From Verrucomicrobiota bacterium (GTDB lineage: Bacteria > Verrucomicrobiota > Verrucomicrobiia > Limisphaerales > UBA11358), in contig JBEKKN010000010.1 of the NCBI GenBank assembly GCA_050010675.1, forward strand, positions 5,648 to 69,647: a stretch of DNA of 64,000 nt, written 5' to 3'. Under the pieces are notes generated by a model. It ran no database searches. It saw nothing but the letters and a program-made list of their open reading frames with translations, and had not been told where the DNA came from. How positions within the stretch are numbered: position 1 is the first letter of the stretch; each line of letters begins with the position of its first letter. Position numbers and translations under genes: made by a program. Below are positions 16,639 through 35,838 of the stretch, piece after piece.

Positions 16639-16675
16639 AAAAGGCGGAGTCCGGTTCACCCGAACCCCGCCCTGA
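16639..16675 (-). terminator. Intrinsic terminator after RRM gene 1
   Basis: GGCGGGG..CTCCGCC stem with a short U-tract on the minus strand; homologous hairpins follow the other two RRM genes. Confidence 0.6.
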
Positions 16676-16693
16676 AATCCTGCTCCCGCCGGA

Positions 16694-17023
16694 TTAATAG
16701 CGATTGCGACTGCCGCCGCCGCTGCCGCTCACCCGGAATTCACGGCGACCGCCGCCGCCGCCGCCGGTGCGTTCTTCGCGCGGCTTGGCAACATTGACCG
16801 TGAGGGCGCGACCGCCCAGTTGCGCGCCATTCAGCGCGGCAATGGCCTTCTGCGCCTCTTCGGGCGTGCTCATGGTGATGAAACCAAAACCCCGGGGACG
16901 GCCGCTCACGCGATCCATCATCAGGTTGGTTTCCGTGACCGTGCCGTGCGCCGCAAAGGCGTCCTGCAGGTCGTTTTCAGTGGTGTCGAAGGATAAATTT
17001 CCGACAAACAATTTATTGCTCAT
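16694..17023 (-). CDS. RRM RNA-binding protein with Gly-rich tail (copy 1)
   Basis: RNP2 LFVGNL, RNP1 RGFGFI, GR.LTVN.A.PRE. Confidence 0.95.
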
Positions 17024-17155
17024 GTGATGTTTACTGTCCTAGACCGAACTTTGCTGACCAGACTGTTCCCGTTAATCGGATTTCAAATCATCACTGAACC
17101 AGGTTCACCTGAGGATTTACCATGCCGTGGAAGCTCTGTACTATCTAACAGACGA
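17024..17155 (-). ncRNA. Conserved structured 5' leader of RRM gene (copy 1), candidate cis-regulatory RNA
   Basis: 34-nt block 17075-17108 identical to 30626-30659 and 35627-35660; stems supported by G-U/G-C variation between copies. Confidence 0.6.
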
Positions 17156-17240
17156 ACCCAATATTCGCTGATTCCACCGCGATAGCAACAAGAATCGGCA
17201 ACTATCTTTCCGGCGGGAAATGGGGCCGGTGCCGGGTTGG

Positions 17241-18293
17241 TTATGGCGCTGCGGCGGGCGGGGAACCCAGTTTTGCCGCCAGCTGGCTGACCTGCTTTTC
17301 CAGTTCGCGCAGGCGATGAATCATCTCCGGCAACTGCTGCGCCGCGATAATTTGCCGCTTCGCCTGTTTGTCGGGTATCGCCGGAATGCCCAGGACTTTT
17401 GCGCCGGCCGGCACGTCGCGCATGACCCCGGATTTCGCGGCAATGATGGCCTGCTGGCCGAGTTTCAAGTGTCCGGCAATGCCGGACTGGGACGCAATGA
17501 TGACGTAATCCCCCAGGTGCGTGCTGCCCGCGAACCCGACCTGGCCCATGATCAGGCAATGCCGGCCCATGACCACGTTGTGCGCCACGTGTACGAGATT
17601 ATCAATCTTCGTTCCCGCGCCGATCACGGTGGCACCCAGGGCGGCACGGTCGATCGCCACGTTGGCGCCAATCTCGACATCGTCGTGAATGATGACGTTG
17701 CCGATCTGCAGCACCTTGCGATGCCGGCCTTCGTCCAAAACATAACCGTAACCGTCGGAGCCGATCACCGTTCCGGCGTGGATCACCACGCGATGACCGA
17801 TGACCGTCTTCGGGTAAATCACCACGTTGGGAAACAGGCAGACGTCTTCGCCTAGTCGGGTATCGCGCCCGATATGATTCCCGCCGAGCAGGACGGAGCG
17901 CGGGCCAATCTGGACGCGGGCGCCAATCACGCAGTTGGGGCCGATGTGCGCCGTCGCATCCACCTGGGCCGACGGATCGAGGTTCGCGCTGGGATGAATG
18001 CCTTGCGGGAACTGGTCCGGCGGGAAGAAAACGGGCAGTAATCTGGCCATCGCGACCCGCGCGCTGGCCACCTGGATCAGGACCTTCTTCGTCGAACTGA
18101 AGCCGCCCGGGACCAGGATCGCCGCCGCGGCGCTTTGTTCCGCCGCCGCAAAATGTTCCGGATTGTCGGCAAAGGTGAGGTCGCCGGCCCGGGCATTGTC
18201 CGCCGCGGCAAATCCGGTCAGGCGCGTGGATCCGTCGCCGAGGACATCACCGCGGACGCGTTCGGCGATTTGAGAAACGGTAAAGGAGATCAT
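17241..18293 (-). CDS. lpxD: UDP-3-O-(3-hydroxyacyl)glucosamine N-acyltransferase
   Basis: Hexapeptide repeats, [31 protein letters not shown]. Confidence 0.93.
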
Positions 18294-18470
18294 GTGAGGT
18301 AGGTTTCAGGCCGCTGGCTTTGAGCGGTAAAATCGTTGGCGTATTGTCGGGTGATCACGATCGGTGTTTGTCCGGTTCTCATGGGTGTTTCCGGCTCGCA
18401 GAGTTTTGACGCACGCGGATGAGTTTGTCGATGACAACTTGCGATCTCCGGCGCGTTGAGCCTCCCGGAT

Positions 18471-20334
18471 TCAGGGTAAACTCAGCCGGAAAAACCGGAT
18501 TTGACCCACCTGCGGCAGGGAGACTTCAAGATTGCCATTCTGATCGGTGACGACGTTGGTGACCGGCTGCCAGTTCGCCGGCGCGAGGTTGGTCGTGCTG
18601 TAAAGATTGAAACCGTTGGTGGGCCCGGGCCAGGCGATGGCCAGGGTTGAACTGTTCGTTCCCGGGCTCATGGACAGCATTGGTCACGCCACTGAGACTG
18701 GTGATGTTGTTTGACAGGTCGCGCTGATCATAAACGTTCCAACCGGCGGGGATCGCGTAGTTCGTCGTGACGTCAGGGTTCCAAAGCACATGCGCGTTCG
18801 TGAAACCGAGCCGTTGCAGCGTCGCGACCCAGGTGCCGTTTGAGTCGATCGTCAGGCCCGTCATTTGCGCGCCGACGAGCCAGCTGGCGGTATTGCTGTA
18901 GGCGATGCCACCGGCGTCGGATATTTCACTGGGCGGGTTGATGCACAACGGAACATATCCTGCCGAAGCGCCCTTGTCATAATTGTACCAGTCCCAGTTC
19001 TGCACATTCTGGGTCCACCAGAACAGATAGGCGCGGGCAACGATGCCGGCATTCTCCTGCGGGTTGGCGTTCGTGGAGGCGGCACCTTCGGTGCACCAGA
19101 TGGGCAGGGAACTCCATTGGGGGTAATGCGAAAGCATGTCCCGCAGACCGACCACTTCGCCCAGGCTGCTTTCGGGGCGCGATTCGGTGTAATCATGGAA
19201 CGTCACGATGTCCGGGGGCGGTCCCCCCGCCTGGATGTACGCTTCCAGCCAGCCCAGGCCGCCCAGGGTGATGTTCGGCCCGAGGATTTTGATCGTCGGG
19301 TCAACATTGGTCAGGACCGTGCGGGCGATTTGCGCCATCGTCACCATGTTGGAAATTGCGCCGGTGTAATAGGACGGGGAATCGCTCTCGTTCCACACCT
19401 CGTAATACTGGATGAAACCCTTGTAACGCAGCGCCACGCTCTGCACGTAATTGCTCCAATAATTCATGTCACCCGGTTCCGAGGAAGCGCCGGGACCATT
19501 TTTGGCCGTGGGCGTGTTGGTGGTCAGCGCCGCCCAGGCCGGCGTCTGGCCGAGGGTGTAAATGATCCTCGTTGCCGGGTTGTTGGTCCAGACGACGTTG
19601 GTGCAGGCATCAAAATGGGTCCAGGCAAAATAGTTCGTATTGGTTTCAACCTGGTTCCAGTGGATGCCGACGTCCCAAAAGCGCACCAGCCCCTGCTGCA
19701 GCGGCGGCCAGTTGTCCGGCGCGGTAAACGCGCTGATGTGCATGCCAAACAACGTCGCCGGAATCGCGGACGTTGTGTTCATCAGCGGTGCATAAAGATA
19801 GTTCGAAGTCACCTCGGCCAGCGCGGCGTCGTCAATCCAGAAGGTGCCGTTGGTCAGAAAATTGACGGTGAACTGCGCGTAGCTGCCGTTCTGCCAGCCG
19901 CCGTTGATCAGGACCGGCTGCCAGTTGGTGTCCACGGTCACGATGTGGCTCGCCGCGGATTGAAAACCGTTATGCACCACGTTCGAGCCGCGTAACTCGA
20001 ATTGCACCCGCGAAGGACCGGCGGCGCGCAGCCAGACGCTGGCGGCATAAACGCTGCCCGCCTGGAATGTGAACGGCTGGTAAAACATCGCTGTGTTGGA
20101 GGCCGTCAGGCCGCTCACCGTCGCCCGCTGGCAACTGGCGCCGGAATAGGGATTGTTCGTCTCCGGCGCAAATAAAATGGACGTACCCCCGACCGCAAGT
20201 TGGGTCCAGTTGGAGGCGATGCCCGACGGAGTAAACGTTTCGAAGTCGGCATTCGTCAGGAACTGTGCCCACGCACTGTTGCCGGTCGCAATCAGTGTCA
20301 GAAAGACCACCGCCAGGATAAATCGCCGTCTCAT
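18471..20334 (-). pseudogene. Secreted CBM4/9-like + clan GH-A glycoside hydrolase, frameshifted near 18680
   Basis: Signal peptide, LTNADFE carbohydrate-binding start, YEVWNE, DIVTFHDY, PIWCTEG; the verrucomicrobial C-terminal tail (YSTTNLAPANW..FFRL) lies in another frame at 18471..18680. Confidence 0.75.
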
Positions 20335-20415
20335 GGAATCCTCACGCGAATTGGACGAACGAGTGCCGCGACAGGTTACAATCCGGCAGTGAATCTGCCG
20401 CCCTGGCCGACGACC

Positions 20416-22347
20416 TCAAGTTGGACGACCACTCGGTGGAACTGCCGAAGCCGCGCGGATCGCCTCCAACTCCTCCCAGCGCGCGTACAGCTTTGCGAGA
20501 TTGCCCTTCGCCGCGGCGAGGTCGGCATTGAGCTGGCTGGTTTGCGCGGCGCGGGTGCGGTGAAAATCCGGCGAGGCAAACAAGGCTTCGATGCGGGCGA
20601 TTTCCGCGTCCACCGCGTGAATTTGCGCCTCCATGCCTTCCAGCTCGCGCGTTTCCTTGAACGACAGCTTGCGGGGCTTGGCCGGGCTCGGTGTCTTCGG
20701 GGCGTCGACTCGGGAGAGCGCCGTTGATTTGTTTGCAGAGATGATGGCGGCGCTCTGCCGAGACGCCGCGACAACCTGCCGCTGCTTTTTTTCCAGGTAA
20801 TAATCGTAATCGCCGACGCTGTGATGGATTTTGCCGTCGCCTTCGAAGGCCAGCACGTCGGTGCAGACGCGGTTCAGGAAATACCGGTCGTGGCTCACCA
20901 CCAGCACGGTGCCCGGAAACGCAATCAACGCCTCCTCCAGCACCCGTAACGTCGGCAGGTCGAGATCGTTCGTCGGTTCGTCGAGGATGAGGAAATTGCC
21001 GCCGTTCTTCAGGATGCGCGCGAGCAGCAAACGGCTGCGTTCGCCGCCGCTCAGGTGTTTTACCAGCGTCGTGATGCGATCGTCGGCGAACAGGAACCGC
21101 TTGAGATACGAGCGCAGCGAAATTTTGGCTTCGCCGAAGATGACAAATACCGTGCCGTCGCTGACCTCCTCCAGCGCCGTGCGTTCCTCGCGCAATTGAA
21201 TCCGCCCCTGGTCCACATAGTTGAACTTCGTGAGCTGGCCGGTCTTCACCGTGCCTTCCGTGGGTGCCAGCTGGCCGATGATGATCTTGAGCAATGTGGT
21301 TTTACCCAGGCCGTTCCGCCCGGCCACGCCGATGCGCTGGCCGTTTTCGAACGTGAAATTGAACCCGCGAAACAGCGTGCGCCCGCCGAGGTCCATGCCC
21401 AGATTGCTCAATTCAACGACGCGATTGCCCAGTTGCGGCGGCGGCGGGATGCACAGCTCCACGTCTTCCTCGATCACCGGTCCGTCCTGCGCCGCGGTTT
21501 CATAGTAACGCTCGAACCGGTTCTTCTGCTTGCTGCGTTGAGCGCGCGGACCCTGCCGCACCCAGGCCAGTTCCTTTTTGAGAAACATCTGGCGCTTGTG
21601 CTCGATGGTGACGTCCGCCGCCTGGCGCTCGGCCTTGTCCAGCAGGTAATCGGTGTAATTGCCGGCGTGCGAGAAAAACCGGCCGTCGGAGAGCTCGACC
21701 ATGCGCCTGGCCACGCGGTCGAGAAAATAGCGGTCATGCGTGACGACCAGGAACGAGCCGTGGAACTCGTCGAGAAATTCGGCGACCCACTCGATGGATT
21801 CCGGGTCCAGATGGTTCGTCGGCTCGTCGAGAATCAGCAGGTCGGGGTCCGAGACCAGGGCGCGGCACATGGCGATGCGCCGCTTCTCGCCGCCGGACAG
21901 GCTTTCGATGCGCCGGTCGGCGGCGGGACAATTCAGGTGCGACATCGCGGTCTCAATGCGCCGGTCGAGCGTCCAGCCTTCCAGCGCGGCGATGCGATGC
22001 TCCAGTTCCTCGTGGCGTTTTGAGTCCTGCGGCAGCGATTCGAATTCCGCAATCAAATCCAGCACCGGCTTCGCCCCGTCGCGGATGTTTTCGAGCACGT
22101 TCTTCGCCGGATCGAGCATGAAATCCTGCGGCAGGTAGCTGACGACGAGTTCGCGCCGGCGGGTGACATCGCCGCCATCCGGCGATTGCAGTCCGGCGAG
22201 GATGCGGAGGAACGTCGTCTTGCCGCAGCCATTGCGCCCGACGAGCCCGATGCGGTCGCCTTCGTCAATCGCCAGCGTCGCGCGGTCGAGTACCGTGCGA
22301 TCACCGTAGCTTACGGTGATTTCAGTGGCGGTCAGGATGGTGGACAT
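20416..22347 (-). CDS. uup: ABC-F family ATPase (Uup-like)
   Basis: Two ABC domains (GRNGCGKT/LSGGE/LDEPTNHLD and GRNGLGKT/LSGGE/DEPTNDLD), C-terminal KLSFKE.REL coiled coil ending ARWEELE. Confidence 0.88.
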   Translation of the reverse strand: MSTILTATEITVSYGDRTVLDRATLAIDEGDRIGLVGRNGCGKTTFLRILAGLQSPDGGDVTRRRELVVSYLPQDFMLDPAKNVLENIRDGAKPVLDLIAEFESLPQDSKRHEELEHRIAALEGWTLDRRIETAMSHLNCPAADRRIESLSGGEKRRIAMCRALVSDPDLLILDEPTNHLDPESIEWVAEFLDEFHGSFLVVTHDRYFLDRVARRMVELSDGRFFSHAGNYTDYLLDKAERQAADVTIEHKRQMFLKKELAWVRQGPRAQRSKQKNRFERYYETAAQDGPVIEEDVELCIPPPPQLGNRVVELSNLGMDLGGRTLFRGFNFTFENGQRIGVAGRNGLGKTTLLKIIIGQLAPTEGTVKTGQLTKFNYVDQGRIQLREERTALEEVSDGTVFVIFGEAKISLRSYLKRFLFADDRITTLVKHLSGGERSRLLLARILKNGGNFLILDEPTNDLDLPTLRVLEEALIAFPGTVLVVSHDRYFLNRVCTDVLAFEGDGKIHHSVGDYDYYLEKKQRQVVAASRQSAAIISANKSTALSRVDAPKTPSPAKPRKLSFKETRELEGMEAQIHAVDAEIARIEALFASPDFHRTRAAQTSQLNADLAAAKGNLAKLYARWEELEAIRAASAVPPSGRPT

Positions 22348-22529
22348 TTCAATTCAAGCCGCAGCATGACACAACATTACCCACAGGAACGCGGACGGTA
22401 TCAAAGCCCTGGGAAGGAACAAGCCGGGAAAGCCGGTCCGACGCTGATTGTTTTGTCCGGCTTGGTCAGGTTGGGGGCTTGATTCTTCGTTGGTGCCCCT
22501 CCGGATATGTTGACGGTGATGGCCGCCGG

Positions 22530-24926
22530 CTACCGGCTTTGCAAGGTGACGCTGGCCGGTTCGAGCCCGGGCGCACTTGCCTGCACCGTGATGCCACCGC
22601 CCGATCCGTTGGATTGCAGAATCACCAGCCCGCGGCCCTGGAATGTCCGGTGCGTGTCGCCCTGGCAATTTTCGTGGTTGCTCAAATCGCCGTTGCCGAT
22701 GCCGATGATTTTGGCCGGGCCGGTCAAATCAAATTTCACTTCCGCGTCGGCATCGGGCACGCGCACGCCATTTTCGTCCACGATCCGGAATTCAATCTGG
22801 GAAACGTCCTTGCCATCGGCGCGGAGTTGAGTCGTGTCCGGCAGCAGTTCAATTCGGTGGGGCGCGCCGGCGGTTTGCAACACGTAATCGCAAACGTCCC
22901 GTCCGTTCACGCGGCCGACGGCCCGGAGCGTTCCCGGCTCGAAGGGCACCTGCCAGTTTAAAACGCCGTCAACGGCTTCGGAACGTTTCCGGGTGCCGAT
23001 GATTTTGCCGTTCAAGGTCAGTGTGACTTCCGGGCAGTTGGCGTAAGCGGCCACGTTCACGGTGGCGTTGGAGGGCCAGTTCCAATGTTCGGCGGCGTTG
23101 AACCGCCGGTTCAGGGGCGGGCCGGGGACGCATAAATAAACCATCGGCCGGTCGTTCCACAGGCTTTGCCGGAACCAGCCGATGGGTTTTTTGAAACCGC
23201 AAAGGTCGAGCAGGCCCGCCCCGTTGGCGCGATCCGGCCACGCATCCGCCTCGCCGAGATAATCAACGCCCGTCCACAAAAATTGGCCGGCAATATAATC
23301 ATTCGTCTCCACCGCGCGCCACGCGGCATATGGATGGCCGTTCTCGCTGCCGTAAATGACCCGTTTCGGAAATTTCTTATGGTCGTCGGCATAACGCGCT
23401 TCCTGATAGTTGTAGCCGGTGGCATCGAGTAATTCCGGCAGGCCGACGGCGTCGGACATCGCCACCATCGCGAGCGCCGCGGTGACGGGCCGTGTGCGAT
23501 CCAACGATTTAACGGCGGCCACCAGTGGCGCGGCGCATTTCAACAAATCTGCGGCCGGGGGATTTTCCGGGCGATAATTTTGCCCGAGCACGGGGTCCGA
23601 AAATGGATCGTTGGGATAATCAATCTCGTTGCCGATGCTCCACAGAATAATGCTCGGATGATTGCGGTCGCGGCGGACCATGTCCGAAATGTCCGTCACC
23701 GACCATTGATCAAAAATTTCGGCGTAACCGAAGTGGTCGGGCACGCCGGCATTCCAGCCGGCAACCCATTTATTTTTCCCCGGCGTAAATTCGTCAAACG
23801 CTTCATCCATCACGAGCAAGCCCATCCGATCGCACAGGTTCAACAATTCCGGGTCCGGCGGATTGTGGCTGGTGCGGATGGCGTTGACGCCGATTTCCTT
23901 GAGCAACCGTAATCGCCGTTCCAGAACCTTGTCCGGCACCGCCGCGCCCACCGAACCGGCGTCGTGATGCAGGCAAACCCCCTTGAGCTTGGTCGAAACG
24001 CCATTGAGAAAAAATCCTTGGTTGGCGTCAAACGTCGCGGTGCGGACGCCAAAGGAGGTTTCCGTTTCGTCCACGGTCCCGTCGCCGGATTGGAGGTGGC
24101 TTTTCAAGGTGTAAAGCTGCGGCGATGCGAGCGACCATAATTTCGGCTCCGAAATTTTTATTTTTTGAACCAGTGTTCGAACCGATTTGCCGGCGGCGGA
24201 TTTTGAAGCGGTGGCGGTCCCGACGAGAGTTCCGTCCGGCGCGACGATGTCCGATCGCAACGAAAATGTCTCTTCCTTGCTGAAATTGTTTTCAATCGCC
24301 GTCTCGACGCGGATGAGCGCGGAATTCTTTTTTATTTCCGGCGTGGTCACCGATGTTCCCCAATGGGCGAGGCGCAGCGGCTCCGTGATCACCAGCCGCA
24401 CGTTGCGATAAATTCCCGAGCCGGTGTAAAAACGCGAATCAGCGTAACGCGAATGATCCACGCGCACGGCGACGACGTTGTCAGAATTCCAATTCAAATA
24501 CGGCGTCAAATCGTATTCAAAACCGATGAAACCGAACGGCCGCGCGCCGACAAATTGGCCGTTGATCCAAACCTCGGAGTCGTCATAGACCCCGTCGAAT
24601 TCAATCGCGACCAGCTTGTTTTCCTGCGCCGCGTCGAGCCGAAAATGTTTGCGATACCAGCCAATCCCGCCGGGTACGAAGCCGTTGCCGCTGCCATAGT
24701 CCGGGCTGAACGGACCTTCGATGCTCCAATCGTGCGGTACCTCCAGCTGGCGCCAGCTGCCATCATCGAACGCCGGCAACATTGCCGATGCAAAGTCGCT
24801 TTTGCTGAAAAGCCAGTTTGCGTCAAAATCTTCCGTGAGGCGCGCCGACAAGGCCGGCGAATGAAACGGAATGGCCGCAAAAACCCAAACCAGAAAGGCC
24901 ATGGGAAATATCTTTGGAAATCTCAT
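22530..24926 (-). CDS. GH2 beta-galactosidase-like glycoside hydrolase
   Basis: VPHDWSIE, GIGWYRK.F, GSGIYR, KGVCLHHD, RTSHNP, RDRNHPSII.WSIGNE; start placed at MRFPKIF. Confidence 0.92.
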   Translation of the reverse strand: MRFPKIFPMAFLVWVFAAIPFHSPALSARLTEDFDANWLFSKSDFASAMLPAFDDGSWRQLEVPHDWSIEGPFSPDYGSGNGFVPGGIGWYRKHFRLDAAQENKLVAIEFDGVYDDSEVWINGQFVGARPFGFIGFEYDLTPYLNWNSDNVVAVRVDHSRYADSRFYTGSGIYRNVRLVITEPLRLAHWGTSVTTPEIKKNSALIRVETAIENNFSKEETFSLRSDIVAPDGTLVGTATASKSAAGKSVRTLVQKIKISEPKLWSLASPQLYTLKSHLQSGDGTVDETETSFGVRTATFDANQGFFLNGVSTKLKGVCLHHDAGSVGAAVPDKVLERRLRLLKEIGVNAIRTSHNPPDPELLNLCDRMGLLVMDEAFDEFTPGKNKWVAGWNAGVPDHFGYAEIFDQWSVTDISDMVRRDRNHPSIILWSIGNEIDYPNDPFSDPVLGQNYRPENPPAADLLKCAAPLVAAVKSLDRTRPVTAALAMVAMSDAVGLPELLDATGYNYQEARYADDHKKFPKRVIYGSENGHPYAAWRAVETNDYIAGQFLWTGVDYLGEADAWPDRANGAGLLDLCGFKKPIGWFRQSLWNDRPMVYLCVPGPPLNRRFNAAEHWNWPSNATVNVAAYANCPEVTLTLNGKIIGTRKRSEAVDGVLNWQVPFEPGTLRAVGRVNGRDVCDYVLQTAGAPHRIELLPDTTQLRADGKDVSQIEFRIVDENGVRVPDADAEVKFDLTGPAKIIGIGNGDLSNHENCQGDTHRTFQGRGLVILQSNGSGGGITVQASAPGLEPASVTLQSR

Positions 24927-25213
24927 AAAGATCCGCACTTTAGTTTGTTTCCGAAAATCATTCCAGCGCATTTCCCCGTTTTCCAGCCGGGGGAACGGCT
25001 CCTGCAAACGAGCCCCCAGGCCGTGGTGGCGGTGATTGCGAATGACGAGCAATCCTGCGATGTCCCACTGATGGTGGTGAGGATGATGGACATGTCAGAA
25101 CGCGAACGCGGCAAAGAATTCAACCGGAATAAACGAAAGGGTCTGGCAGCATGAATCCGGCAATCCATTTGCGCAAGACGCCCTGCGTTCGATATTCTCC
25201 CACATCACCACAT

Positions 25214-27964: not shown

Positions 27965-27976
27965 CTGGCGTGCAGC

Positions 27977-29626
27977 CTAATCCCTGGCCGTCTGTGCCGG
28001 CAACGCGGACAATGGCACCCGCTCGTTGGTTTTGGCGAAATACTCGGCCGACCATTCATTGGTGAACAGCACGACCGGGTTTTTGCCCACGTCATATGCG
28101 ATCCGGGAACCGGTTGGCAGCGACAAGGCGTCTAGATCGTCCTCCTTCATATCCACCGGCAGCCAGCGGACGACTGTCCAAGGCGCGGCTTCGAGCCGCG
28201 ACACCGCGCCGTACTCGCTTTCGAGCCGGAATTGCACGACCTCGAATTGCAACGGGCCGACCGCTGCGAGCAAGGGTGTTTTCACCGACGAATTGCGCAG
28301 GTATAGCGCCTGGATGACGCCTTCCTGCATCAATTGCTCCAGTCCCTGGCGAAATTGTTTGAACTTGGCCGTGTTCGGGTTGTGCAGGTAGCTGAAGGCT
28401 TCGGGTGTGAACCGCGGGATTTCCTTGTAAATGATTTTGGGGTCGGTCGTCAGCGTGTCGCCGATGCCAAAGCCGTTGTGGCCGACCAAGCCAATCACGT
28501 CGCCGGGCCAGGCTTCGTCGACGGTTTCGCGCTCGTTGCCGAACAGCTTGTGCGAGCTGGACAGGCGCACCTTCTTTTCCGACCGCGAATGATGCACCGT
28601 CATGTCACGCTCGAATTTGCCGGAACAGACCCGGACGAACGCGATGCGGTCGCGGTGTTTCGGATCCATGTTCGCCTGAATCTTGAAAATGAACCCGGAG
28701 AACGCGGGGTGTTCCGGCGTGATGTAGTCGCCGACCTGGGGCGGTGAATGGCTCGGGTCGCCGTTCACCCCGGCGGCCACCGCCGAATGCCGTCCTTTGG
28801 GTCCGGGCGCGTGTTTCAGGAAACCGTCCAGCAGCAGTTGCACGCCAAAGTTGTTGCTGGCGCTCCCGAAGAAAACCGGCGTGGTCTTGTCCCCCAGCAC
28901 GGCGGCGTCATCCCAGTCATGCCCGGCGTGTTCAAGCATGGCGAGTTCCTCGACCGTTTTGTGAAACGTCGCATCGTCCAGACGGCCGCGGACCGCCGGA
29001 TCATCAAGGCCGCCGACCTGCACCGGCGCGCGATATTGGCCGCCAACGGTGCGTTCGAACAGATGCATCAGTTTTGTCTGCCGGTCATAAACGCCCTGAA
29101 ACTCGGAACCGTTGCCGATGGGCCAGTTCACCGGGAACGCGCCGATGCCCAGCACGTGTTCCAGTTCGTCGAGCAGGGCCAGCGGATCTTTGGTCGGCCG
29201 GTCGCACTTGTTCATGAACGTGAAGATCGGCACGCCGCGCTGGCGGCAGACCTCGAAGAGCTTGCGCGTCTGCGGTTCGATGCCCTTGGCCGAGTCAATC
29301 ACCATCACCACCGAATCCACCGCCGTGAGCACGCGATAGGTGTCCTCGGAAAAATCCTTGTGCCCCGGCGTGTCGAGCAGATTGAGGCGGTAACCGTTGT
29401 AATCGAATTGCAATACCGTGGAGCTGATGGAGATGCCGCGCTTCTTTTCCAGCTCCATCCAGTCGGACGTGGTGGCGCGTTGATTTTTACGCGCGGTGAC
29501 CGAGCCGGCGAGCTGCACCGCGCCGCCGTACAGCAGCAGCTTCTCCGTCAACGTGGTCTTGCCCGCGTCCGGATGCGAGATGATGGCGAACGTGCGGCGT
29601 TTCTGAATTTCGTCCGTGATGTTCAC
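27977..29626 (-). CDS. prfC: Peptide chain release factor 3
   Basis: RRTFAIISHPDAGKTTLTEK, DTPGH.DFSEDTYR, FKIQANMDP.HRDR. Confidence 0.97.
   Translation of the reverse strand: MNITDEIQKRRTFAIISHPDAGKTTLTEKLLLYGGAVQLAGSVTARKNQRATTSDWMELEKKRGISISSTVLQFDYNGYRLNLLDTPGHKDFSEDTYRVLTAVDSVVMVIDSAKGIEPQTRKLFEVCRQRGVPIFTFMNKCDRPTKDPLALLDELEHVLGIGAFPVNWPIGNGSEFQGVYDRQTKLMHLFERTVGGQYRAPVQVGGLDDPAVRGRLDDATFHKTVEELAMLEHAGHDWDDAAVLGDKTTPVFFGSASNNFGVQLLLDGFLKHAPGPKGRHSAVAAGVNGDPSHSPPQVGDYITPEHPAFSGFIFKIQANMDPKHRDRIAFVRVCSGKFERDMTVHHSRSEKKVRLSSSHKLFGNERETVDEAWPGDVIGLVGHNGFGIGDTLTTDPKIIYKEIPRFTPEAFSYLHNPNTAKFKQFRQGLEQLMQEGVIQALYLRNSSVKTPLLAAVGPLQFEVVQFRLESEYGAVSRLEAAPWTVVRWLPVDMKEDDLDALSLPTGSRIAYDVGKNPVVLFTNEWSAEYFAKTNERVPLSALPAQTARD
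28743..28769. repeat. Palindromic in-frame insert in prfC
   Basis: GGTGAATGGC-N7-GCCGTTCACC, within the extra segment SAVAAGVNGDPSHSPPQVG. Confidence 0.5.
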
Positions 29627-29713
29627 AAAGGACGCATATCATAACCAGAAATCGGGCCGGAACAAGTTTTGGATTTTGCCCGGCGCCGCTGCCGCCGGAG
29701 GTGGAGTCGGTCA

Positions 29714-29803
29714 TTTACAATCGCCACCCCGGCGCGCATGATGCCCCTGCCTTCGGAGAAACTGACATGCCGCGGGCAGGTCAACCTGACGGAAGACAAT
29801 GTT
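29714..29803 (+). promoter_or_regulatory. Shared promoter and leader upstream of small basic ORF A
   Basis: TTTACA-N17-CATGAT, then CCTTCGGAGAAACTGACATGCCGC (29750-29773), identical to 35875-35898. Confidence 0.6.
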
Positions 29804-29872
29804 ATGGCTAAAAAATCCAAGGTCAAAAGCGCCGCCAAAAAGAGACCGGCCGCTAAAAAGAAAAAGAAGTAA
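29804..29872 (+). CDS. 22-aa Lys/Ala-rich peptide MAKKSKVKSAAKKRPAAKKKKK
   Basis: ATG after GGAAG; histone-H1-like composition; shares its leader with ORF 35931. Confidence 0.55.
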   Translation: MAKKSKVKSAAKKRPAAKKKKK

Positions 29873-29932
29873 CCTGTTCCCACTGTCTCTCCTGACAAAA
29901 ATCAGGAGGGACAGGTTGCTCCCCAAAACCAC

Positions 29933-30148
29933 GTGGCCGTGAAACTCTGCCAGGGTCAGGTCTGGAAAAAGGACGGACACTACGTCCGCATCGTGCGACT
30001 CGAACGGCTCGAGGTGGAATATAAATCGTTGGACAGCCTCGCCAGCAAGGCCGGCCCCAAAACCGTCACCAGCAAAAAAGATTTCTGCCGCCTGCTCAAA
30101 GGCGCGCATTTGTTGTCCGCCCGCAAACCATCTCCGCTGGCCGGATGA
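29933..30148 (+). CDS. Small hypothetical protein
   Basis: 71-aa ORF (KLCQGQVWKK..YVRIVRLERLEVEYK) with normal codon usage. Confidence 0.65.
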   Translation: MAVKLCQGQVWKKDGHYVRIVRLERLEVEYKSLDSLASKAGPKTVTSKKDFCRLLKGAHLLSARKPSPLAG

Positions 30149-30167
30149 GGCCCGGGTGGGAACAAAC

Positions 30168-30205
30168 AAAAAAAGGCGGAGCCCGGTTTTCACCGGACCC
30201 CGCCC
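30168..30205 (-). terminator. Intrinsic terminator after RRM gene 2
   Basis: GGCGGGGTCCGGT-GAAA-ACCGGGCTCCGCC followed by a T-run on the minus strand. Confidence 0.8.
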
Positions 30206-30221
30206 TGAAATCCAAAAGGGA

Positions 30222-30572
30222 TCAGTAGCGTTCGCGACGTCCGCCGCCACCACCACCGCCACCGCCACCGCCGCCGTAACCGCCACGACGACCACCACCG
30301 CCACCGCCGCCGGGGGCGCGTTCTTCACGCGGCCGGGCTACGTTGACCGTGAGGGCGCGACCGTCCACTTCCTTGCCGTTCAAGGCTTCGATGGCCTTTT
30401 GGGCCTCCTCGGGTGAACTCATGGTCACAAAACCAAAACCGCGGGGGCGGCCGGTTTCGCGATCCATCATCAGGTTGGTTTCCACGACCGTGCCATACGC
30501 GGCGAACGCGTCGTTCAGGTCGTTTTCGGTGGTATTGAAGGAAAGATTTCCCACAAACAATTTGCTGCTCAT
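30222..30572 (-). CDS. RRM RNA-binding protein with Gly-rich tail (copy 2)
   Basis: LFVGNL, RGFGFV, long GGG/RGG tail. Confidence 0.95.
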
Positions 30573-30706
30573 ATGATGTTTACTGTCCTAGACTAAACTT
30601 AGCTTTTGCCAGACTGTTTCCGTTGATCGGATTTCAAATCATCACTGAACCAGGTTCACTTGAAGATTTACCATGCCTTAAAAAGAGACAAGCCATCTAA
30701 CAGACA
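30573..30706 (-). ncRNA. Conserved structured 5' leader of RRM gene (copy 2)
   Basis: Shares the 34-nt invariant block and other blocks with copies 1 and 3; TTGCCA-N16-TACACT promoter-like motif just upstream. Confidence 0.6.
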
Positions 30707-30790
30707 ACCGCAGTGTAACAGGTTCCGGCGGGATGGCAACAACCTTCGTCAATTATTTTTTCAGCCCGCCCGGGCCCGGTCCGGACCGGG

Positions 30791-31876
30791 TCAGGTCGCG
30801 GAAACCCCGCCGATGGCCTGTAATTTCGGGTTGATCACCCGGCGCCACCAGGGCGGCAACAGCACCATGGCGATGGACCAGAAATACCCCGCCGGCAGTT
30901 TGGGCGCCTGCGGCTCGGTCGCCAGCAGATAATAGGGTTTCACCGCCAGATGATGATAGGAATGGTGCCCGACCCGGAAGGTCACATAACTCGAAAAGAA
31001 ATGGTAGGTGTCCCAGGAATGTTCCGCCCCGGTCTTTTCATACTCCCCCGCCTGCTGTTTGCGCAGCAATCCGTAGTGCTGAATGTAATTGACGGATTCC
31101 AGGACGATGTGGGCCCCGACGATGTGGGCCAGATAGAACAACAATCCCCACAGGCCCGAAAGTAGATACAGGACCAGCAGGAGCGCCAGCTGGCCCACGG
31201 CAAACATGGTCATTTTGTTCCGGAAAATACCCGCCCCGGCGGCGGGTTCCCCGGCGGCAAAGCGTCTGGCCTCCAGGTGCCAGGACCGGATCATGCTCCC
31301 GGGGATCGTCCGATAAATGTACGCGTAAATGCTTTCGTTCAACCAGGCGGTGTTCTCGTCCTCGGCGGTCCCGGCATGGACATGGTGGCTGCGGATATGA
31401 ATGACCTTGTAGTGCGGGTAAAACAAAAACGTGGTGGTGATGCGTTGGAGGATCTGGTCGAGTTTTTCCTTCGCATGCAACAACTCATGGGCCGCGGCAA
31501 AACCAATCCCGCCCAGCAAACTCGACGATACCAGAATCAGGCTGATTTCGATGACGCTGAAGCGATGAATGGACATCGCAAAATAAATCACCGTCCCCAT
31601 GTAAAACAGGGCATAGAGCCGCGTGTTCCAATGCAGCAGGGAGATTTCAAAGGGGGAAAAGTCATTTTTGTCAAAATGACCAGTGTCCTGCCAGCCGGTG
31701 AGCAGGTCGAGCAGCGGCACCACGGCGAGCAAAAAAAGGACCGGCAGCGCGAGCCAGTAACCGCCGCCGTAAACACCCAGGGCCAGCAGCCCAAACAGCA
31801 GTTGTGGCAGAAAACAAAAGAACAGATGACGATACTTTCCGCTCACCGCCGTGCTTTGCGAAGCCTCTGGTTGCAT
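30791..31876 (-). CDS. Alkane 1-monooxygenase (AlkB)/desaturase-like membrane di-iron enzyme
   Basis: His boxes AHELLH, HIRSHH, NYIQHYGL, HHSYHH; PKLPAGY. Confidence 0.85.
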   Translation of the reverse strand: MQPEASQSTAVSGKYRHLFFCFLPQLLFGLLALGVYGGGYWLALPVLFLLAVVPLLDLLTGWQDTGHFDKNDFSPFEISLLHWNTRLYALFYMGTVIYFAMSIHRFSVIEISLILVSSSLLGGIGFAAAHELLHAKEKLDQILQRITTTFLFYPHYKVIHIRSHHVHAGTAEDENTAWLNESIYAYIYRTIPGSMIRSWHLEARRFAAGEPAAGAGIFRNKMTMFAVGQLALLLVLYLLSGLWGLLFYLAHIVGAHIVLESVNYIQHYGLLRKQQAGEYEKTGAEHSWDTYHFFSSYVTFRVGHHSYHHLAVKPYYLLATEPQAPKLPAGYFWSIAMVLLPPWWRRVINPKLQAIGGVSAT

Positions 31877-32089
31877 GATGATCTGTCGTTCTGTCTTTAC
31901 CTCGCGCCGTTGCTGCCCGATCGGGCGACGGCGTCCGAAAAGCGTCAGCCAAGGGGCGGAACACCCCACCGCCGACGTTGGATCTACTAAAAGGTGTCCT
32001 AAAAGTCAAGTTCAGACGCGCTGTTGACAGCCGATCAAAGCGGATTGATTTGACTTCTCATTTGCCCGAATAAATCGTCTTATTCCGCC

Positions 32090-33121
32090 ATGGCAGAGCC
32101 AAGCGCCAGCGGGAACACCCATCCGACGTACCGGCAGACGATGCTGGACAAGCCCACGTATGGGCATCCCGGCCCCGCGCCAAAAACGCCGGCGATCCGG
32201 CAGGTGCTGGCCGAGTGGTTGGATGCCATCAGCTTCTGGAAAGACCGCACCCGGTTGATCCCGGCCGCGTACGCGACCTATCACTTTGCCACGTTCCTGG
32301 TATTCGTCTGGTTTTTGGCAACGCATTTTTCCATCTCGGCCGTCCTCACGGTTTTGCTCTGTGCCTGTTTCATCGGCACGGTTTACAACACGGTATGGTA
32401 TCACCGGCTCTGTTCGCACCAGGCGTTTAAATTCCGCAACCTCTGGTTTGCGCGGGTGTTTTTGTGGACGAATCCCATCTGCCTGCGCGAGGAGAGCTAT
32501 GTGATTCCGCACCGGATTCACCATGCGAAGTCGGACGAGCCGGGAGACCCTTATGGCCCGCACCTTGGCTGGCTGGGAAGTTATCTGGCCACCGAAACGC
32601 AGCAGAAGACCAATCGCAACCTCACCGCTGCCGAGTATGAGCGGCTGGTGAAAAGTCTGGAACACGTCGGATTTATGAGTAATACCTATGAGCAATATCG
32701 GCGGACGGGCTCGGTTGAAAACGTCTGGCACTATTTTGCGCGTGTGGTCTTCGTCCATCTTTTCTGGGGGATGTTGGCGTGGGCCGCGGCCGGTTGGTGG
32801 GGAGTCTGGGCGTGGATATCGGGGGTGTTCCTGTTAAGCTTCATGGTGCGTGACTTCAATTACCGGGGGCACAGTGCCTTGACCGGCACTCACAAGCCCG
32901 GCGAACCGGTGAACCAGTTCGTTTACGGGCTGATCGCCGGCGAGTGGCATGAGAACCATCATCAATATCCCCGCCTCGCGCGCAGCGGCCTGGCCTGGTG
33001 GCAGGTGGACGCGCCTTACTGGATCATTCGCGCCATGAAAGTCTGCGGGGTTGTTTCGCAATGCAACTCACAGGTGCCTCCCGCCAAGTTTCAGCCTTCC
33101 GATGCGCAAATCGTGGTTTGA
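32090..33121 (+). CDS. Fatty acid desaturase (delta-9-like)
   Basis: His boxes HRLCSH, HRIHH, WHENHH. Confidence 0.85.
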   Translation: MAEPSASGNTHPTYRQTMLDKPTYGHPGPAPKTPAIRQVLAEWLDAISFWKDRTRLIPAAYATYHFATFLVFVWFLATHFSISAVLTVLLCACFIGTVYNTVWYHRLCSHQAFKFRNLWFARVFLWTNPICLREESYVIPHRIHHAKSDEPGDPYGPHLGWLGSYLATETQQKTNRNLTAAEYERLVKSLEHVGFMSNTYEQYRRTGSVENVWHYFARVVFVHLFWGMLAWAAAGWWGVWAWISGVFLLSFMVRDFNYRGHSALTGTHKPGEPVNQFVYGLIAGEWHENHHQYPRLARSGLAWWQVDAPYWIIRAMKVCGVVSQCNSQVPPAKFQPSDAQIVV

Positions 33122-33307
33122 ACATCGCTTCGGACTGAAAGACGCGCTGCCATCGATCCAACGCCGGGCCGTTCCGGATAAATGGCGCGCCATCCCCGGG
33201 ACGAGGACCGTGCCGGCGGCTGGAACCGCGAGGCACTGAATCGTGCGGCAATCGTTCATGCCTGATGCGTTCACCCAAACCGGTTCGACCTGGCTTCCGC
33301 CCCTTGC

Positions 33308-34018
33308 TCACCGGCGGCGGAAGGCGTCGGTGAGGCCGTAGGCGAGCGCGTAGCAGATGAAAATCGCGGCGCCGCCGGCAACCCCTAGCCACCCGGTCTT
33401 AGCGGCGTTGCCGTGCCGGAGCGGTTTGGCCAGCAGCGTGAAGGCGATGGCGATGCCGAATTCGCCGAGGATGATATAATAGGGCGTGTTGGAAATCATG
33501 CGGCAGCCGCGGTATTGCCACCAGTGAATGCGGCGCGCCATCTCTTCGTAGTACGGAATGTTGATGGCACCGAGCGCGCCGACGGCGGCCAGTCCGAGGC
33601 CGCCGAACCGGTCGCGCAGCCACAGGCCGAGACAGCCGAATTGTACGGCGACGATTTCCCAGGCAAACGGCATCCAAATCGGCGAGCGCCACAACATTGG
33701 CCCGCCGCCAGCGGAGTAATCCAGCGTGCGGGTAAAATCCACGAGCCACGCGTCGGCGGCCAGTTCGACAAAGCCGGTCACCAGCCCGAAAACCATCAGC
33801 CGCGTCAGCAACGCATCATGGTAAAGGACGACAAAGCCGATCAGGAGCGCATTGTCGAACAGGTTGAGCGCGAGACCGGTCTTCCAGTCCGACCACGGCG
33901 CGAACGTGAGCAGCGCGACGGCAACGACGTTGATGACGATGGTCGCCAGTACGACGCGCAGGCGTCTCAATTCCAACGAATCAATCGGCAGGCTGGCCAG
34001 CGGTTTGAGTTTGACCAT
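33308..34018 (-). CDS. Hypothetical multi-pass membrane protein (DUF6989-like)
   Basis: Several TM helices, EL.ADAWLV, P.WMPFAW, YEEMA....WW.Y. Confidence 0.65.
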   Translation of the reverse strand: MVKLKPLASLPIDSLELRRLRVVLATIVINVVAVALLTFAPWSDWKTGLALNLFDNALLIGFVVLYHDALLTRLMVFGLVTGFVELAADAWLVDFTRTLDYSAGGGPMLWRSPIWMPFAWEIVAVQFGCLGLWLRDRFGGLGLAAVGALGAINIPYYEEMARRIHWWQYRGCRMISNTPYYIILGEFGIAIAFTLLAKPLRHGNAAKTGWLGVAGGAAIFICYALAYGLTDAFRRR

Positions 34019-34075
34019 GGAACGGATTACTAGCAAATCGCCGTCCAATAGTCACCTCGGCTTTTCCGCCGGCCG

Positions 34076-34237
34076 TCAGGGAGCCACCGCCCCCCACGAC
34101 GCGCTGGGTTTCCAGGCCGATTCCTGCCGGGTTTGCCGCCAATCGCGCTGCGTCAATTCCGGCGCCGTCAGCGCCTGCCACAATTTCTCCGGCGTCGTGC
34201 GGATGCAGGTCACCTGGACGAATGGTTCGGGTTTCAG
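34076..34237 (-). pseudogene. Truncated SRPBCC/AHA1 paralog remnant
   Basis: Translates LKPEPFVQVTCIRTTPEKLWQALTAPELTQRDW..ESAWKP.., homologous to the N-terminus of 34262..34702; no ATG, stops after 53 codons. Confidence 0.7.
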
Positions 34238-34261
34238 GTTTTTCGTGGTTGGTTTACGCGG

Positions 34262-34702
34262 TCATTTGCAAAAGATGTTGAGTCCCTTGCCGGTTTCCAA
34301 AAACGTTTTCAGGCTGGAGAGGACGCGCGGCCAGCCCCAGGAAACCCCGCGGAGCATCTTCGAGCCCACCTTCAATTTGTCGTGCGTCACCTTGAGGCAC
34401 ACCATGTCTTCCAGCGCCTCAATCTCAAACGTGACGCGCGATTGGTCGGCGAGCCTGTCCGGGTCGGCCCAGCTCAGCACCAGACGTTTGGGCGGAGTGC
34501 TTTCCAGCACCTTGCCGGTGATCCAAACGGGGTCCGCCTCTTTTTCAAAGACGTGCTCCCATTTTGAACCTTTCTTCCAGTCCGAAACATTCTTGGCGCC
34601 GCCCCAATATTGGCGGGTGAACTCGGGCCGGGTGATCGCATCCCACAGTTTCCTGGGCGTGGTGCGAATGTAGGTGGCGTAAACTAACTTTGGCTTTTGC
34701 AT
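34262..34702 (-). CDS. SRPBCC (AHA1-like) domain protein
   Basis: YIRTTP.KLW.AIT.PEFTRQYW, SRVTFEIE, GWP.VLSSLKT.LETG. Confidence 0.9.
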   Translation of the reverse strand: MQKPKLVYATYIRTTPRKLWDAITRPEFTRQYWGGAKNVSDWKKGSKWEHVFEKEADPVWITGKVLESTPPKRLVLSWADPDRLADQSRVTFEIEALEDMVCLKVTHDKLKVGSKMLRGVSWGWPRVLSSLKTFLETGKGLNIFCK

Positions 34703-34705
34703 GAC

Positions 34706-35032
34706 TTATCCTTTCTGGTTGGTTTTGGTTTGTTCGAGACCCTTTTTCAGATCGCCGAGCGCCTGAAGGCGATGGCGTTCGTATTTGCCAATCCAGCGCT
34801 CGCTGATCTCGTGCAGCGGCACCGGATTCAGATAATGCAGCTTCTCGCGCCCCCGCCAGACCACTGCCACCAGGTTCGCCTTCTCCAGCAACCGGAGATG
34901 CTTGGTGACCGCCTGCCGCGTCATGTCGAGGTGCGCGCACAATTCGCCGAGCGTCCGCCCGTTGCTCTGGTGCAACTGGTCGAGCAACTGTCGGCGGCTC
35001 CGGTCGGCCAACGCTTTGAATACCGCATCCAT
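34706..35032 (-). CDS. ArsR/SmtB family regulator
   Basis: VFKALAD.SRR.LLD.L, MTRQAVTKHL..LE.ANLV, GREK.HYLN. Confidence 0.92.
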   Translation of the reverse strand: MDAVFKALADRSRRQLLDQLHQSNGRTLGELCAHLDMTRQAVTKHLRLLEKANLVAVVWRGREKLHYLNPVPLHEISERWIGKYERHRLQALGDLKKGLEQTKTNQKG

Positions 35033-35041
35033 CTGCGCGCC

Positions 35042-35071
35042 ATAATATGCAACCAAATGGTTGCATGTCAA
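35042..35071 (-). promoter_or_regulatory. Sigma70 promoter overlapping an ArsR operator palindrome
   Basis: TTGACA-N18-TATTAT on the minus strand enclosing the perfect palindrome ATGCAACC-AAAT-GGTTGCAT (35047-35066). Confidence 0.8.
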
Positions 35072-35206
35072 GCGCCGATTTTTAGGGAGCTGAATGGGGA
35101 ATGTCCCGGAGGAATTGAAGCCTTCAGCCGGGGGCTGCCCGAATGCTTTCGGGGCTGCCTTGGAGCCATCGTCCCGCCTATGGAATCAACCCGGAATCGA
35201 AAAATA

Positions 35207-35242
35207 AAAAGGCGGGATCCGGTTCTCACCGGACCCCGCCCC
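35207..35242 (-). terminator. Intrinsic terminator after RRM gene 3
   Basis: GGCGGGGTCCGGT-GAGA-ACCGGATCCCGCC followed by TTTTATTTTT. Confidence 0.8.
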
Positions 35243-35257
35243 GAAATCCAGACTGGA

Positions 35258-35572
35258 TTAGTAGCGATCGCGACCGCCGCCGCCGCCGTATCCACGACCG
35301 CCGCCGCCGCCAGCCGGGCGCTCTTCACGCGGCTTGGCCACGTTGACCGTGAGGGCGCGGCCGCCCAGTTGCGAGCCATTCAGCGCGCTGATGGCTTTTT
35401 GCGCCTCCTCGGCGGAGTTCATGGTGATGAAGCCAAAACCGCGCGGACGGCCGGTGGCCCGGTCCATCATCAGGTTGGTTTCCATGACCGTGCCGTGCGC
35501 GGCAAACGCGTCCTGCAGGTCGTTTTCGGTGGTGTCAAAGGAAAGATTCCCGACAAATAATTTGCTGCTCAT
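35258..35572 (-). CDS. RRM RNA-binding protein with Gly-rich tail (copy 3)
   Basis: LFVGNL, RGFGFI, GGGGGRGYGGG tail. Confidence 0.95.
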   Translation of the reverse strand: MSSKLFVGNLSFDTTENDLQDAFAAHGTVMETNLMMDRATGRPRGFGFITMNSAEEAQKAISALNGSQLGGRALTVNVAKPREERPAGGGGGRGYGGGGGRDRY

Positions 35573-35705
35573 ATGATGTTTTACTGTCCTAGACTAAACT
35601 TTGCTTTTACCAGACTGTTTCCGTAAATCGGATTTCAAATCATCACTGAACCAGGTTCACTTGAGGATTCACCATGCCTTGAAAGAGACAAGCTATCTGA
35701 CAGGC
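35573..35705 (-). ncRNA. Conserved structured 5' leader of RRM gene (copy 3)
   Basis: Same conserved blocks as copies 1 and 2. Confidence 0.6.
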
Positions 35706-35838
35706 CGGTGCAGGGTGACGGGTTCCAGCCGGAAGGCAACAACTATCGGCAACTATGTTTTGGGCCATAACCCCGGGAATTTCGTCGGGTATCCGGCCGG
35801 CTGACCGTCCGCCGGGCCGGATGAGGTTGCATCCATCA

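Follow-up and report, generated by a model that had tools for sequence, protein, structure and literature searches.

Bacterial RRM proteins are poorly understood, and to our knowledge no defined RNA target or control element has been established for them. Small RNA chaperones, the initiation factors IF-1 and IF-3, DEAD-box helicases and desaturases form the classic cold-acclimation set of Escherichia coli and cyanobacteria; desaturases also belong to the cold-induced partners of the cyanobacterial Rbp proteins, and an element in the 5' untranslated region (5' UTR) of the rbp genes is reportedly present there. According to the available text of the respective reports, glycine-rich single-RRM Rbp proteins are needed for cold adaptation in cyanobacteria (PMC9333190), where the helicase CrhR is a cold-induced partner (PMC6693541). 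The rbpA/B/C genes of Bacteroides thetaiotaomicron, as described in the available part of PMC13370968, specify RRM-1 proteins that support cold adaptation, carry 5' UTRs of 122-155 nt, and regulate their own expression by feedback, in part via the 5' UTR, with the thermosensor question left open there. A candidate cis-regulatory structured RNA, the Chlorobi-RRM RNA motif (RF01697), has been outlined upstream of RRM genes (Weinberg 2010, PMC2864571). The present analysis concerns a 64-kb stretch of DNA from a member of the Verrucomicrobiota (contig JBEKKN010000010.1, positions 5,648 to 69,647; hereafter the window), in which three genes for small RRM proteins (rbp genes) are each preceded by a related leader. 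The element in these leaders represents an apparently new RNA family within an established kind, the leaders of RNA-chaperone or cold-shock genes.

The resemblance to the E. coli cspA 5' UTR, with its thermosensor and cold box (Giuliodori 2010, as cited in PMC13370968), is that a small, abundant nucleic-acid chaperone has an mRNA with a long leader (~130-160 nt), that alternative folds, here candidates predicted in silico, involve the start region, and that related cold-shock genes are marked as well. The differences are that the verrucomicrobial element had no match to the Rfam cspA thermoregulator model, even at E up to 10, that its gene encodes an RRM and not a cold-shock domain (CSD), that the CSD gene of the same genome lacks it, and that what is conserved in the element is a compact junction of three stems. 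Like the Chlorobi-RRM motif, as far as that is set out in the text available, it lies directly upstream of RRM genes in one phylum (4/4 in this genome and 95/100 matches of the whole-leader model R1, defined below); however, the phylum differs, the RF01697 model was unlisted for all three leaders even at E up to 10, and the verrucomicrobial element also occurs before desaturase, IF-1, IF-3 and helicase genes. The Bacteroides leaders are set apart by description only, in that the available part of their description (PMC13370968) contains no conserved RNA structure. The cyanobacterial rbp genes, compared likewise by the descriptions at hand, are similar in being glycine-rich, single-RRM and cold-linked, but belong to another phylum.

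The suggestion of an earlier note on this DNA, that the leaders contain an undescribed structured cis-regulatory RNA, has held up: the candidate is conserved, covaries on the mRNA strand, and found no match in Rfam 15. Across the whole window there were no Rfam matches at the gathering score, and at E up to 10 the three leaders gave only chance-level ones (snoR101, Xist_exon1, mir-1264, DicF, PK-BYV, SNORD59), scoring 9.5-15.2 bits against gathering scores of 40-79. In the literature searched, no verrucomicrobial rbp leader was found to be described. PMC5737381 mentions, in its main text, neither 'RRM' nor 'Verrucomicrobia'; its supplements, which hold all 224 motifs, lay outside this check.

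The element is a real, widely conserved, folded leader RNA on the sense strand of the mRNA, and mainly marks rbp genes. In an alignment of the three loci, conservation extended from ~190 nt before the ATG through the coding sequence (CDS). The stretches 17024-17155, 30573-30706 and 35573-35705, pointed out in the earlier note, are the leaders upstream of the three RRM genes, and the invariant 34-mer reported there was recovered as 34 consecutive invariant leader positions, GTGAACCTGGTTCAGTGATGATTTGAAATCCGAT (alignment positions 153-186, row 1). Pairwise identity of the leaders was 84.0, 85.4 and 92.4%, versus 73.0, 71.8 and 71.8% at four-fold synonymous sites of the RRM domain; it was ~51-53% in the 150 nt upstream of the leaders and 57-65% in the 3' flanks. 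Comparison with synonymous sites had been proposed as the test for recent duplication only, and since the leaders are the more similar (84-92% versus 72-73%), their likeness reflects more than chance or recent duplication. The proposed pairings are also in the sequence as claimed, that is (i) AAAUC..UGAAC-CUG-GUUCA..GAUUU (GAAUC in copy 3), (ii) UCCG-N5-CGG(A/G), and (iii) CUGU(U/C)AGAU with GUCU-AG-GACAG, the last overlapping an AGGA 13-14 nt before the AUG.

What is conserved as a functional unit is a junction of three stems, 74 nt long and made up of hairpins (i) and (ii) and of a closing helix that was absent from the earlier note. The closing helix, P1, pairs GGC-UG with CAGUC; P2 is a long interrupted hairpin, AAAUC-UCA-UGAAC / GUUCA-UGA-GAUUU; and P3 is the hairpin CCCG/CGGG. 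The junction strands between them (GGU.AAUC, GAUUUGAAA and GGGAAC) are nearly invariant. RNAalifold, applied to 67 leaders from the same order, predicts both hairpins together with the closing helix. Apical loops vary in length from 1 to 7 nt while the stems stay, and many pairs alternate between A-U and G-U (for example, AU 34 and GU 31 at one pair), which assigns the structure to the sense RNA and not to the DNA or an antisense transcript. A candidate upstream open reading frame (ORF) across P2 (AUG GUA AAU ... UGA) was rejected: its ATG is present in only 37 of 86 cores (TTG 20, CTG 17, others 12), and neither length nor stop is conserved, the P2 loop being 1-7 nt long.

Because the sequence is too conserved within the order, more distant copies were added to test for covariation. 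Among 100 matches (98 distinct) aligned to the covariance model, 95.6% of cells were standard pairs, compared with 89.4% in shuffles, and 132 cells carried double changes against 43.7 in shuffles (0/500 as high), spread over 14 of 20 pairs. This alignment was fitted to the model and is thereby biased towards the structure, which tells against taking these values at their face, and the count was therefore repeated with 86 distinct cores in an unfitted MAFFT alignment, using a 24-pair structure drawn up by the authors. There, 88.5% of cells were paired (83.1% when shuffled, and 26-49% in controls with slid partners), double changes numbered 139 versus 64.2 (0/500 shuffles as high), and 18 of 24 pairs had changes on both sides, against 13.9 in shuffles (1/500). 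P2 was the best supported helix in this alignment, with 91.9% pairing and double changes in 11 of 13 pairs; P3 was paired in 99.7% of cells and varied little; and P1, at 75.9%, showed clear switches, such as AAGG/UCUG to GUGA/UCAC. Hairpins (i) and (ii) covary, and for the structure as a whole the counts lie above the shuffled and slid controls.

Two covariance models were used to follow the distribution of the element: R1, built from 67 leaders, covers the whole leader and includes 15 nt of CDS, and R2 covers the core only (74 positions, 24 pairs). A DNA search with copy 1 found the element in 56 of 61 related genomes (21/25 genera). R2 matched 131 of 151 sampled genomes of the order, representing 94 of 107 genera, with 1-7 copies each, and the element was missing from the other 20. 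With R1, matches were obtained in 59/151 genomes of a class sample (45/90 genera) and in 14/151 genomes of a phylum sample, including two 0.9-Mb genomes with the element before an RRM gene. At least 120 stretches in species-representative genomes carried the exact degenerate core pattern, and the 80 match titles listed were almost all from Verrucomicrobiota (Limisphaerales / subdivision 3 / Pedosphaera, Opitutaceae, Verrucomicrobiales). Also among the matches listed, and with the exact core, were records titled as Bifidobacteriaceae, Bifidobacterium, Akkermansia muciniphila, Limnocylindrales, Methylomirabilota and Sulfotelmatobacter metagenome-assembled genomes; these are probably mislabelled or mis-binned contigs, horizontal transfer being the alternative.

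In the genome under study there are four RRM genes, three in the window and one elsewhere, and all four have the element directly upstream; no further copies were found in this genome, the next covariance-model match having E ~0.2. The genes behind the element were surveyed in three partly independent samples, of which R1 is biased towards rbp genes by the 15 nt of CDS in the model, and the pattern scan takes no account of the gene that follows. The 100 R1 matches preceded 95 RRM genes (including one with an in-frame stop and one ~200 nt downstream), one desaturase gene, one IF-1 gene, two DEAD-box helicase genes, both from one genus, and one unknown, with no IF-3 gene and none cut. R2, applied to five multi-copy genomes, gave 29 cores before 21 RRM, two desaturase, one IF-1, no IF-3 and no DEAD-box helicase genes, with four unknowns (one of them a weak match, probably false) and one cut by a contig end. 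Among the 80 pattern-scan loci were 73 RRM genes, one desaturase, no IF-1, one IF-3, no DEAD-box helicase, one unknown, and four cut by an end. Overall, genes other than RRM genes follow about 5-10% of the copies. The cores before desaturase, IF-1 and helicase genes are spread over different families and, in part, over different orders, and the marked genes look like the cold-acclimation set. Most cores lie 28-46 nt before the start codon; the distance is ~100-200 nt before infA, infC and one rbp gene.

Several of these loci have features of their own. Behind one good copy of the element (L145), the rbp gene has an in-frame TAG after ...KLFVGNL and is either a pseudogene or an assembly error. 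Between the core and an infA (IF-1) start in another genome (L126), ~150 nt past the core, lies a terminator-like hairpin, CCAAGC-CUGCC-GCUUGG, followed by UGUGUUUUUU, which hints at attenuation or antitermination there. A GC hairpin also occurs between the core and the distant rbp start at L142. In a second infA leader (L182), the P2 3' strand contains the 8-mer AGUGGCGA, which recurs 15 nt ahead of the IF-1 start codon, as a direct repeat and not as a complement.

Outside the core, the rbp leaders can form two further predicted pairings. When folded from the predicted transcription start site (TSS), the minimum free energy (MFE) structure of copies 1 and 2 is the junction seated on a long-range helix, with the 5' end paired to the AGGA stretch; with extra 5' bases included, the junction is absent from the MFE structure. 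In copy 3 the long-range-plus-junction fold lies 0.4 kcal/mol above the MFE, which is a fold sequestering the AUG (-27.8 versus -27.4). Cognate 5' and 3' flanks form better duplexes than non-cognate ones (mean -15.1 versus -12.5 kcal/mol in 74 representatives; 0/5000 permutations as low), and in 19 rbp leaders the flank duplex also surpassed dinucleotide shuffles (mean z -1.11, and below -1 in ten). Four long-range helices were paired in only 58-80% of cells of the MAFFT alignment, and as a general feature the 5'/3' pairing was rejected, with a mean z of +0.09 in six non-RRM leaders. The claim that helix (iii) covers the ribosome-binding region therefore stands in part: pairing over the AGGA site has moderate support, confined to rbp leaders, and is not seen before non-RRM genes. 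In the alternative fold, the P2 3' strand (GUUCAGUGAUGAUUU) pairs with positions -9 to +6 around the AUG (AAACAUCAC-A-UGAGC). This complementarity was likewise stronger in cognate combinations (-8.63 versus -7.19 kcal/mol; 47 representatives, 0/5000 permutations) and shows apparent compensatory changes, for example GGGAUGAU with AUCAUCC. Start-codon sequestration was also discarded as a general feature, the mean z against dinucleotide shuffles being -0.08 in eight non-RRM leaders. Since neither flank feature is seen before other genes, the universal unit is the junction, and the flanks look like an rbp-specific expression platform. Coordinates of these features and of the genes are collected in Table 1.

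Table 1. Leader, core, flank, gene and transcription-signal features of the three rbp loci (window coordinates)
Feature	Position	Strand	Details
Copy 1 leader	17024..17153	-	130 nt, predicted TSS G17153 to the base before AUG
Copy 2 leader	30573..30705	-	133 nt
Copy 3 leader	35573..35704	-	132 nt
Copy 1 core	17058..17130	-	P1 17126-17121 / 17065-17061, P2 17118-17085, P3 17080-17068; R2 82.3 bits, E 6.8e-24
Copy 2 core	30609..30681	-	P1 30677-30672 / 30616-30612, P2 30669-30636, P3 30631-30619; R2 82.6 bits
Copy 3 core	35610..35682	-	P1 35678-35673 / 35617-35613, P2 35670-35637, P3 35632-35620; R2 83.3 bits
Copy 1 long-range helix, 5' arm	17143..17151	-	CUGUUAGAU; in MFE fold from predicted TSS
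Copy 1 long-range helix, 3' arm	17034..17044	-	GUCUAGGACAG; includes AGGA 17040-17037, 13 nt before AUG
Copy 2 long-range helix	5' arm 30703-30695; 3' arm 30583..30593	-	AGGA 30589-30586
Copy 3 long-range helix	5' arm 35703-35695; 3' arm 35584..35594	-	5' arm CUGUCAGAU; AGGA 35590-35587
Copy 1 start-codon stretch	17018..17029	-	CAUCACAUGAGC, complementary to P2 3' strand (alternative fold)
Copy 1 RRM gene	16694..17023	-	109 aa, Gly/Arg-rich tail; Pfam RRM_1 E 1.5e-21
Copy 2 RRM gene	30222..30572	-	116 aa; Pfam RRM_1 E 4.5e-25
Copy 3 RRM gene	35258..35572	-	104 aa; Pfam RRM_1 E 2.1e-22
Copy 1 predicted promoter	17160..17188	-	-35 TTGCTA (17188-17183), 17-nt spacer, -10 AATATT (17165-17160); inferred by homology to copy 2, missed by consensus scan
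Copy 2 promoter-like site	30712..30739	-	TTGCCA, 16 nt, TACACT preceded by TG; found by scan, 9/12 matches; puts TSS near 30705
Copy 3 predicted promoter	35712..35739	-	TTGCCT, 16 nt, CACCCT; inferred by homology, missed by scan
Copy 2 intrinsic terminator-like hairpin	30173..30206	-	15 pairs, then T run; found by scan
Copy 3 intrinsic terminator-like hairpin	35209..35242	-	found by scan

Each rbp gene looks like a self-contained monocistronic unit with a sigma-70-like promoter, a leader of ~130 nt, a CDS for an RRM and glycine-rich tail, and an intrinsic terminator. The three proteins encoded in the window are all small, with a single RRM and a Gly/Arg-rich tail; their RRM domains are co-linear, and the tails (16694-16790, 30222-30330 and 35258-35330) differ between the paralogs through in-frame indels of GGN repeats. 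The same -35 and -10 blocks are kept in relatives, and the start sites predicted from the promoter positions, at ~17153 (G), 30705 and 35704, give leaders of 130-133 nt. A promoter of the extracytoplasmic function (ECF) type (GGAAC-N17-TCTG), which would place the start inside helix (iii), was considered and dropped because relatives conserve TTGC..-16/17-..A...T and not GGAAC. Just upstream of the -35, and overlapping it, is an additional conserved block, AUAGUUGCCGAU.GUUG (17189-17205, 30740-30757 and 35740-35757, minus strand), with a second TTGCC/TTGAC inside it, a candidate for an UP-like element or for the binding site of a factor. The 15-bp terminator hairpin (GGGCGGGGUCCGG..CCGG..CCGCC and a U run) is common to all three paralogs; that of copy 1, at 16640-16680 on the minus strand, escaped the scan and ends in a shorter U run. 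Long antisense ORFs on the plus strand cover the rbp genes (16704-17027, 30343-30576 and 35334-35576), and look like by-products of GC-rich glycine-codon repeats rather than genes.

A search of RNA libraries gave 12 listed rows, from nine studies of peat, wetland and permafrost, containing parts of the window. Four libraries from four studies were mapped, and all consist of assembled contigs, from which start, strand and level are unreadable. Contigs bridge the start codon into the leader at copy 1 (16955-17084) and copy 2 (30463-30655), consistent with leader and CDS being transcribed together. Next to no cover is seen in the bins immediately before the leaders, a gap that in itself proves nothing, and one low-depth contig with eight differences extends to 35811. 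The adapter-tagged contig ends at 30670 and 35692 were rejected as evidence for the TSS, as they are fragment ends.

What the element does can be approached through the company it keeps. Because it also stands before classic cold-acclimation genes in related bacteria, it probably controls a cold-stress gene set. The favoured reading, to which we give about an even chance, is cis-acting post-transcriptional control of cold- and stress-acclimation genes, with the junction as a platform for a trans-acting protein and feedback by Rbp as the likeliest form. The glycine-rich RRM proteins themselves would be the likeliest binders, exerting negative feedback on their own mRNAs, and this feedback may extend to the other marked mRNAs. 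On the rbp mRNAs, the flanks would add an expression platform, in which the 5' end folds back on the AGGA stretch, 13-25 nt before the AUG, or alternatively the P2 3' strand pairs around the start codon; given these two alternatives, translation and 5'-end-dependent decay could respond to protein binding or to temperature. A protein platform is favoured because the class shows no variation in the unpaired junction bases and because the spacing between core and start codon can vary. The absence of flank pairing from non-RRM leaders also suggests that the junction itself is recognised. A further reason is that, according to the part of PMC13370968 available, Bacteroides RRM-1 proteins feed back partly through their 5' UTRs.

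Several observations weigh against this proposal. The cold link comes from gene association, and several of the marked genes are of unknown function. In this genome the element was found before the four rbp genes only, and the single CSD gene is without it. Of five motif-less genomes of the order, four have RRM genes, which belong to other subfamilies, have unrelated leaders, and gave no R2 match with filters off. The leaders are not unusually stable (MFE z -0.66, -0.10 and +0.09 against shuffled sequence for the three copies). RRM domains usually bind short single-stranded stretches, so that a folded junction is no obvious RRM site, and for the invariant junction bases a role in tertiary folding or in binding a ligand is equally conceivable.

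The alternative with most to commend it is a protein-independent RNA thermosensor of the cspA type, in which temperature would set the balance between the long-range-plus-junction fold and the fold that sequesters the start codon with the P2 3' strand. The two are nearly isoenergetic in silico, the junction-enforced fold lying 0.5, 0.0 and 0.4 kcal/mol above the MFE at 37 C, and the better start-region complementarity of cognate rbp pairs, with its apparent compensatory changes, would suit such a switch. However, that complementarity was no better than dinucleotide shuffles in the eight non-RRM leaders, the distance from core to start is variable, and strong conservation of unpaired junction bases is, on established knowledge, unusual for thermometers. 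Cooling in silico also does not favour the junction fold, as the gap widens to 0.9, 3.3 and 0.5 kcal/mol in the three copies, up from 0.5, 0.0 and 0.4. Even with the cspA precedent, cited in the available text of PMC13370968, a thermosensor is an unlikely explanation, although one to be taken seriously. Pairing of the predicted +1 in the MFE structure of copies 1 and 2 could instead point to a constitutive stabiliser or translation enhancer, where the paired 5' end blocks 5'-end-dependent decay, the junction recruits the ribosome, and RNA chaperones are expressed at a high level unconditionally. Contigs from the four RNA libraries cover both rbp CDS and leader, and the element has been kept in the two 0.9-Mb genomes, as might be expected of such a device, but it would not explain why desaturase, IF-1, IF-3 and helicase genes have repeatedly acquired the element in separate lineages, and 5'-end pairing has no support outside rbp leaders. 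It is accordingly regarded as improbable.

Covarying stems around invariant junction strands, along with a wide distribution, are typical of aptamers, and the three-way junction might be a riboswitch that binds a small molecule or ion signalling stress. The genes it marks (RRM, initiation factors, desaturases, helicase and unknowns) are not those for metabolism or transport of one ligand, however, and no consistent terminator or SD-sequestering (Shine-Dalgarno) expression platform recurs across the gene contexts, which makes a riboswitch very improbable. The least probable of the readings considered, with hardly any weight given to it, is a DNA-level operator, that is, a transcription-factor site just downstream of the promoter with incidental RNA pairings. 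The block does start at the predicted +1, its sequence conservation is very strong, and a DNA-binding repressor is said to act at a cyanobacterial rbp leader. Against this are the compensatory changes that keep pairing, the frequent G-U pairs, which are C-A mismatches on the other strand, and the apical loops, free to range from 1 to 7 nt on stems that stay.

Feedback by Rbp proteins through the junction thus remains the favoured reading, and it has a broader form, offered tentatively and on balance doubtful, in which the junction would be the RNA operator of a phylum-wide, post-transcriptional cold regulon, with glycine-rich RRM proteins recognising the folded 74-nt module and thereby controlling their own mRNAs and those for IF-1, IF-3, DEAD-box helicase and membrane desaturases. 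The element itself is a compact, covariation-supported RNA module present in hundreds of Verrucomicrobiota from soil, peat and freshwater, and the two covariance models could be used to annotate it in metagenomes and metatranscriptomes. The question raised by the Bacteroides work, whether rbp leaders are thermosensors or feedback sites, becomes testable on a clearly delimited structure. The element connects rbp genes with those for initiation factors, a helicase and desaturases, and this leads to a directly testable hypothesis on cold sensing or adaptation in a major, mostly uncultured soil phylum. If true, the operator reading would provide bacterial RRM proteins with a defined structured target and the role of a global regulator, in place of the Csp/cold-box system of Proteobacteria.

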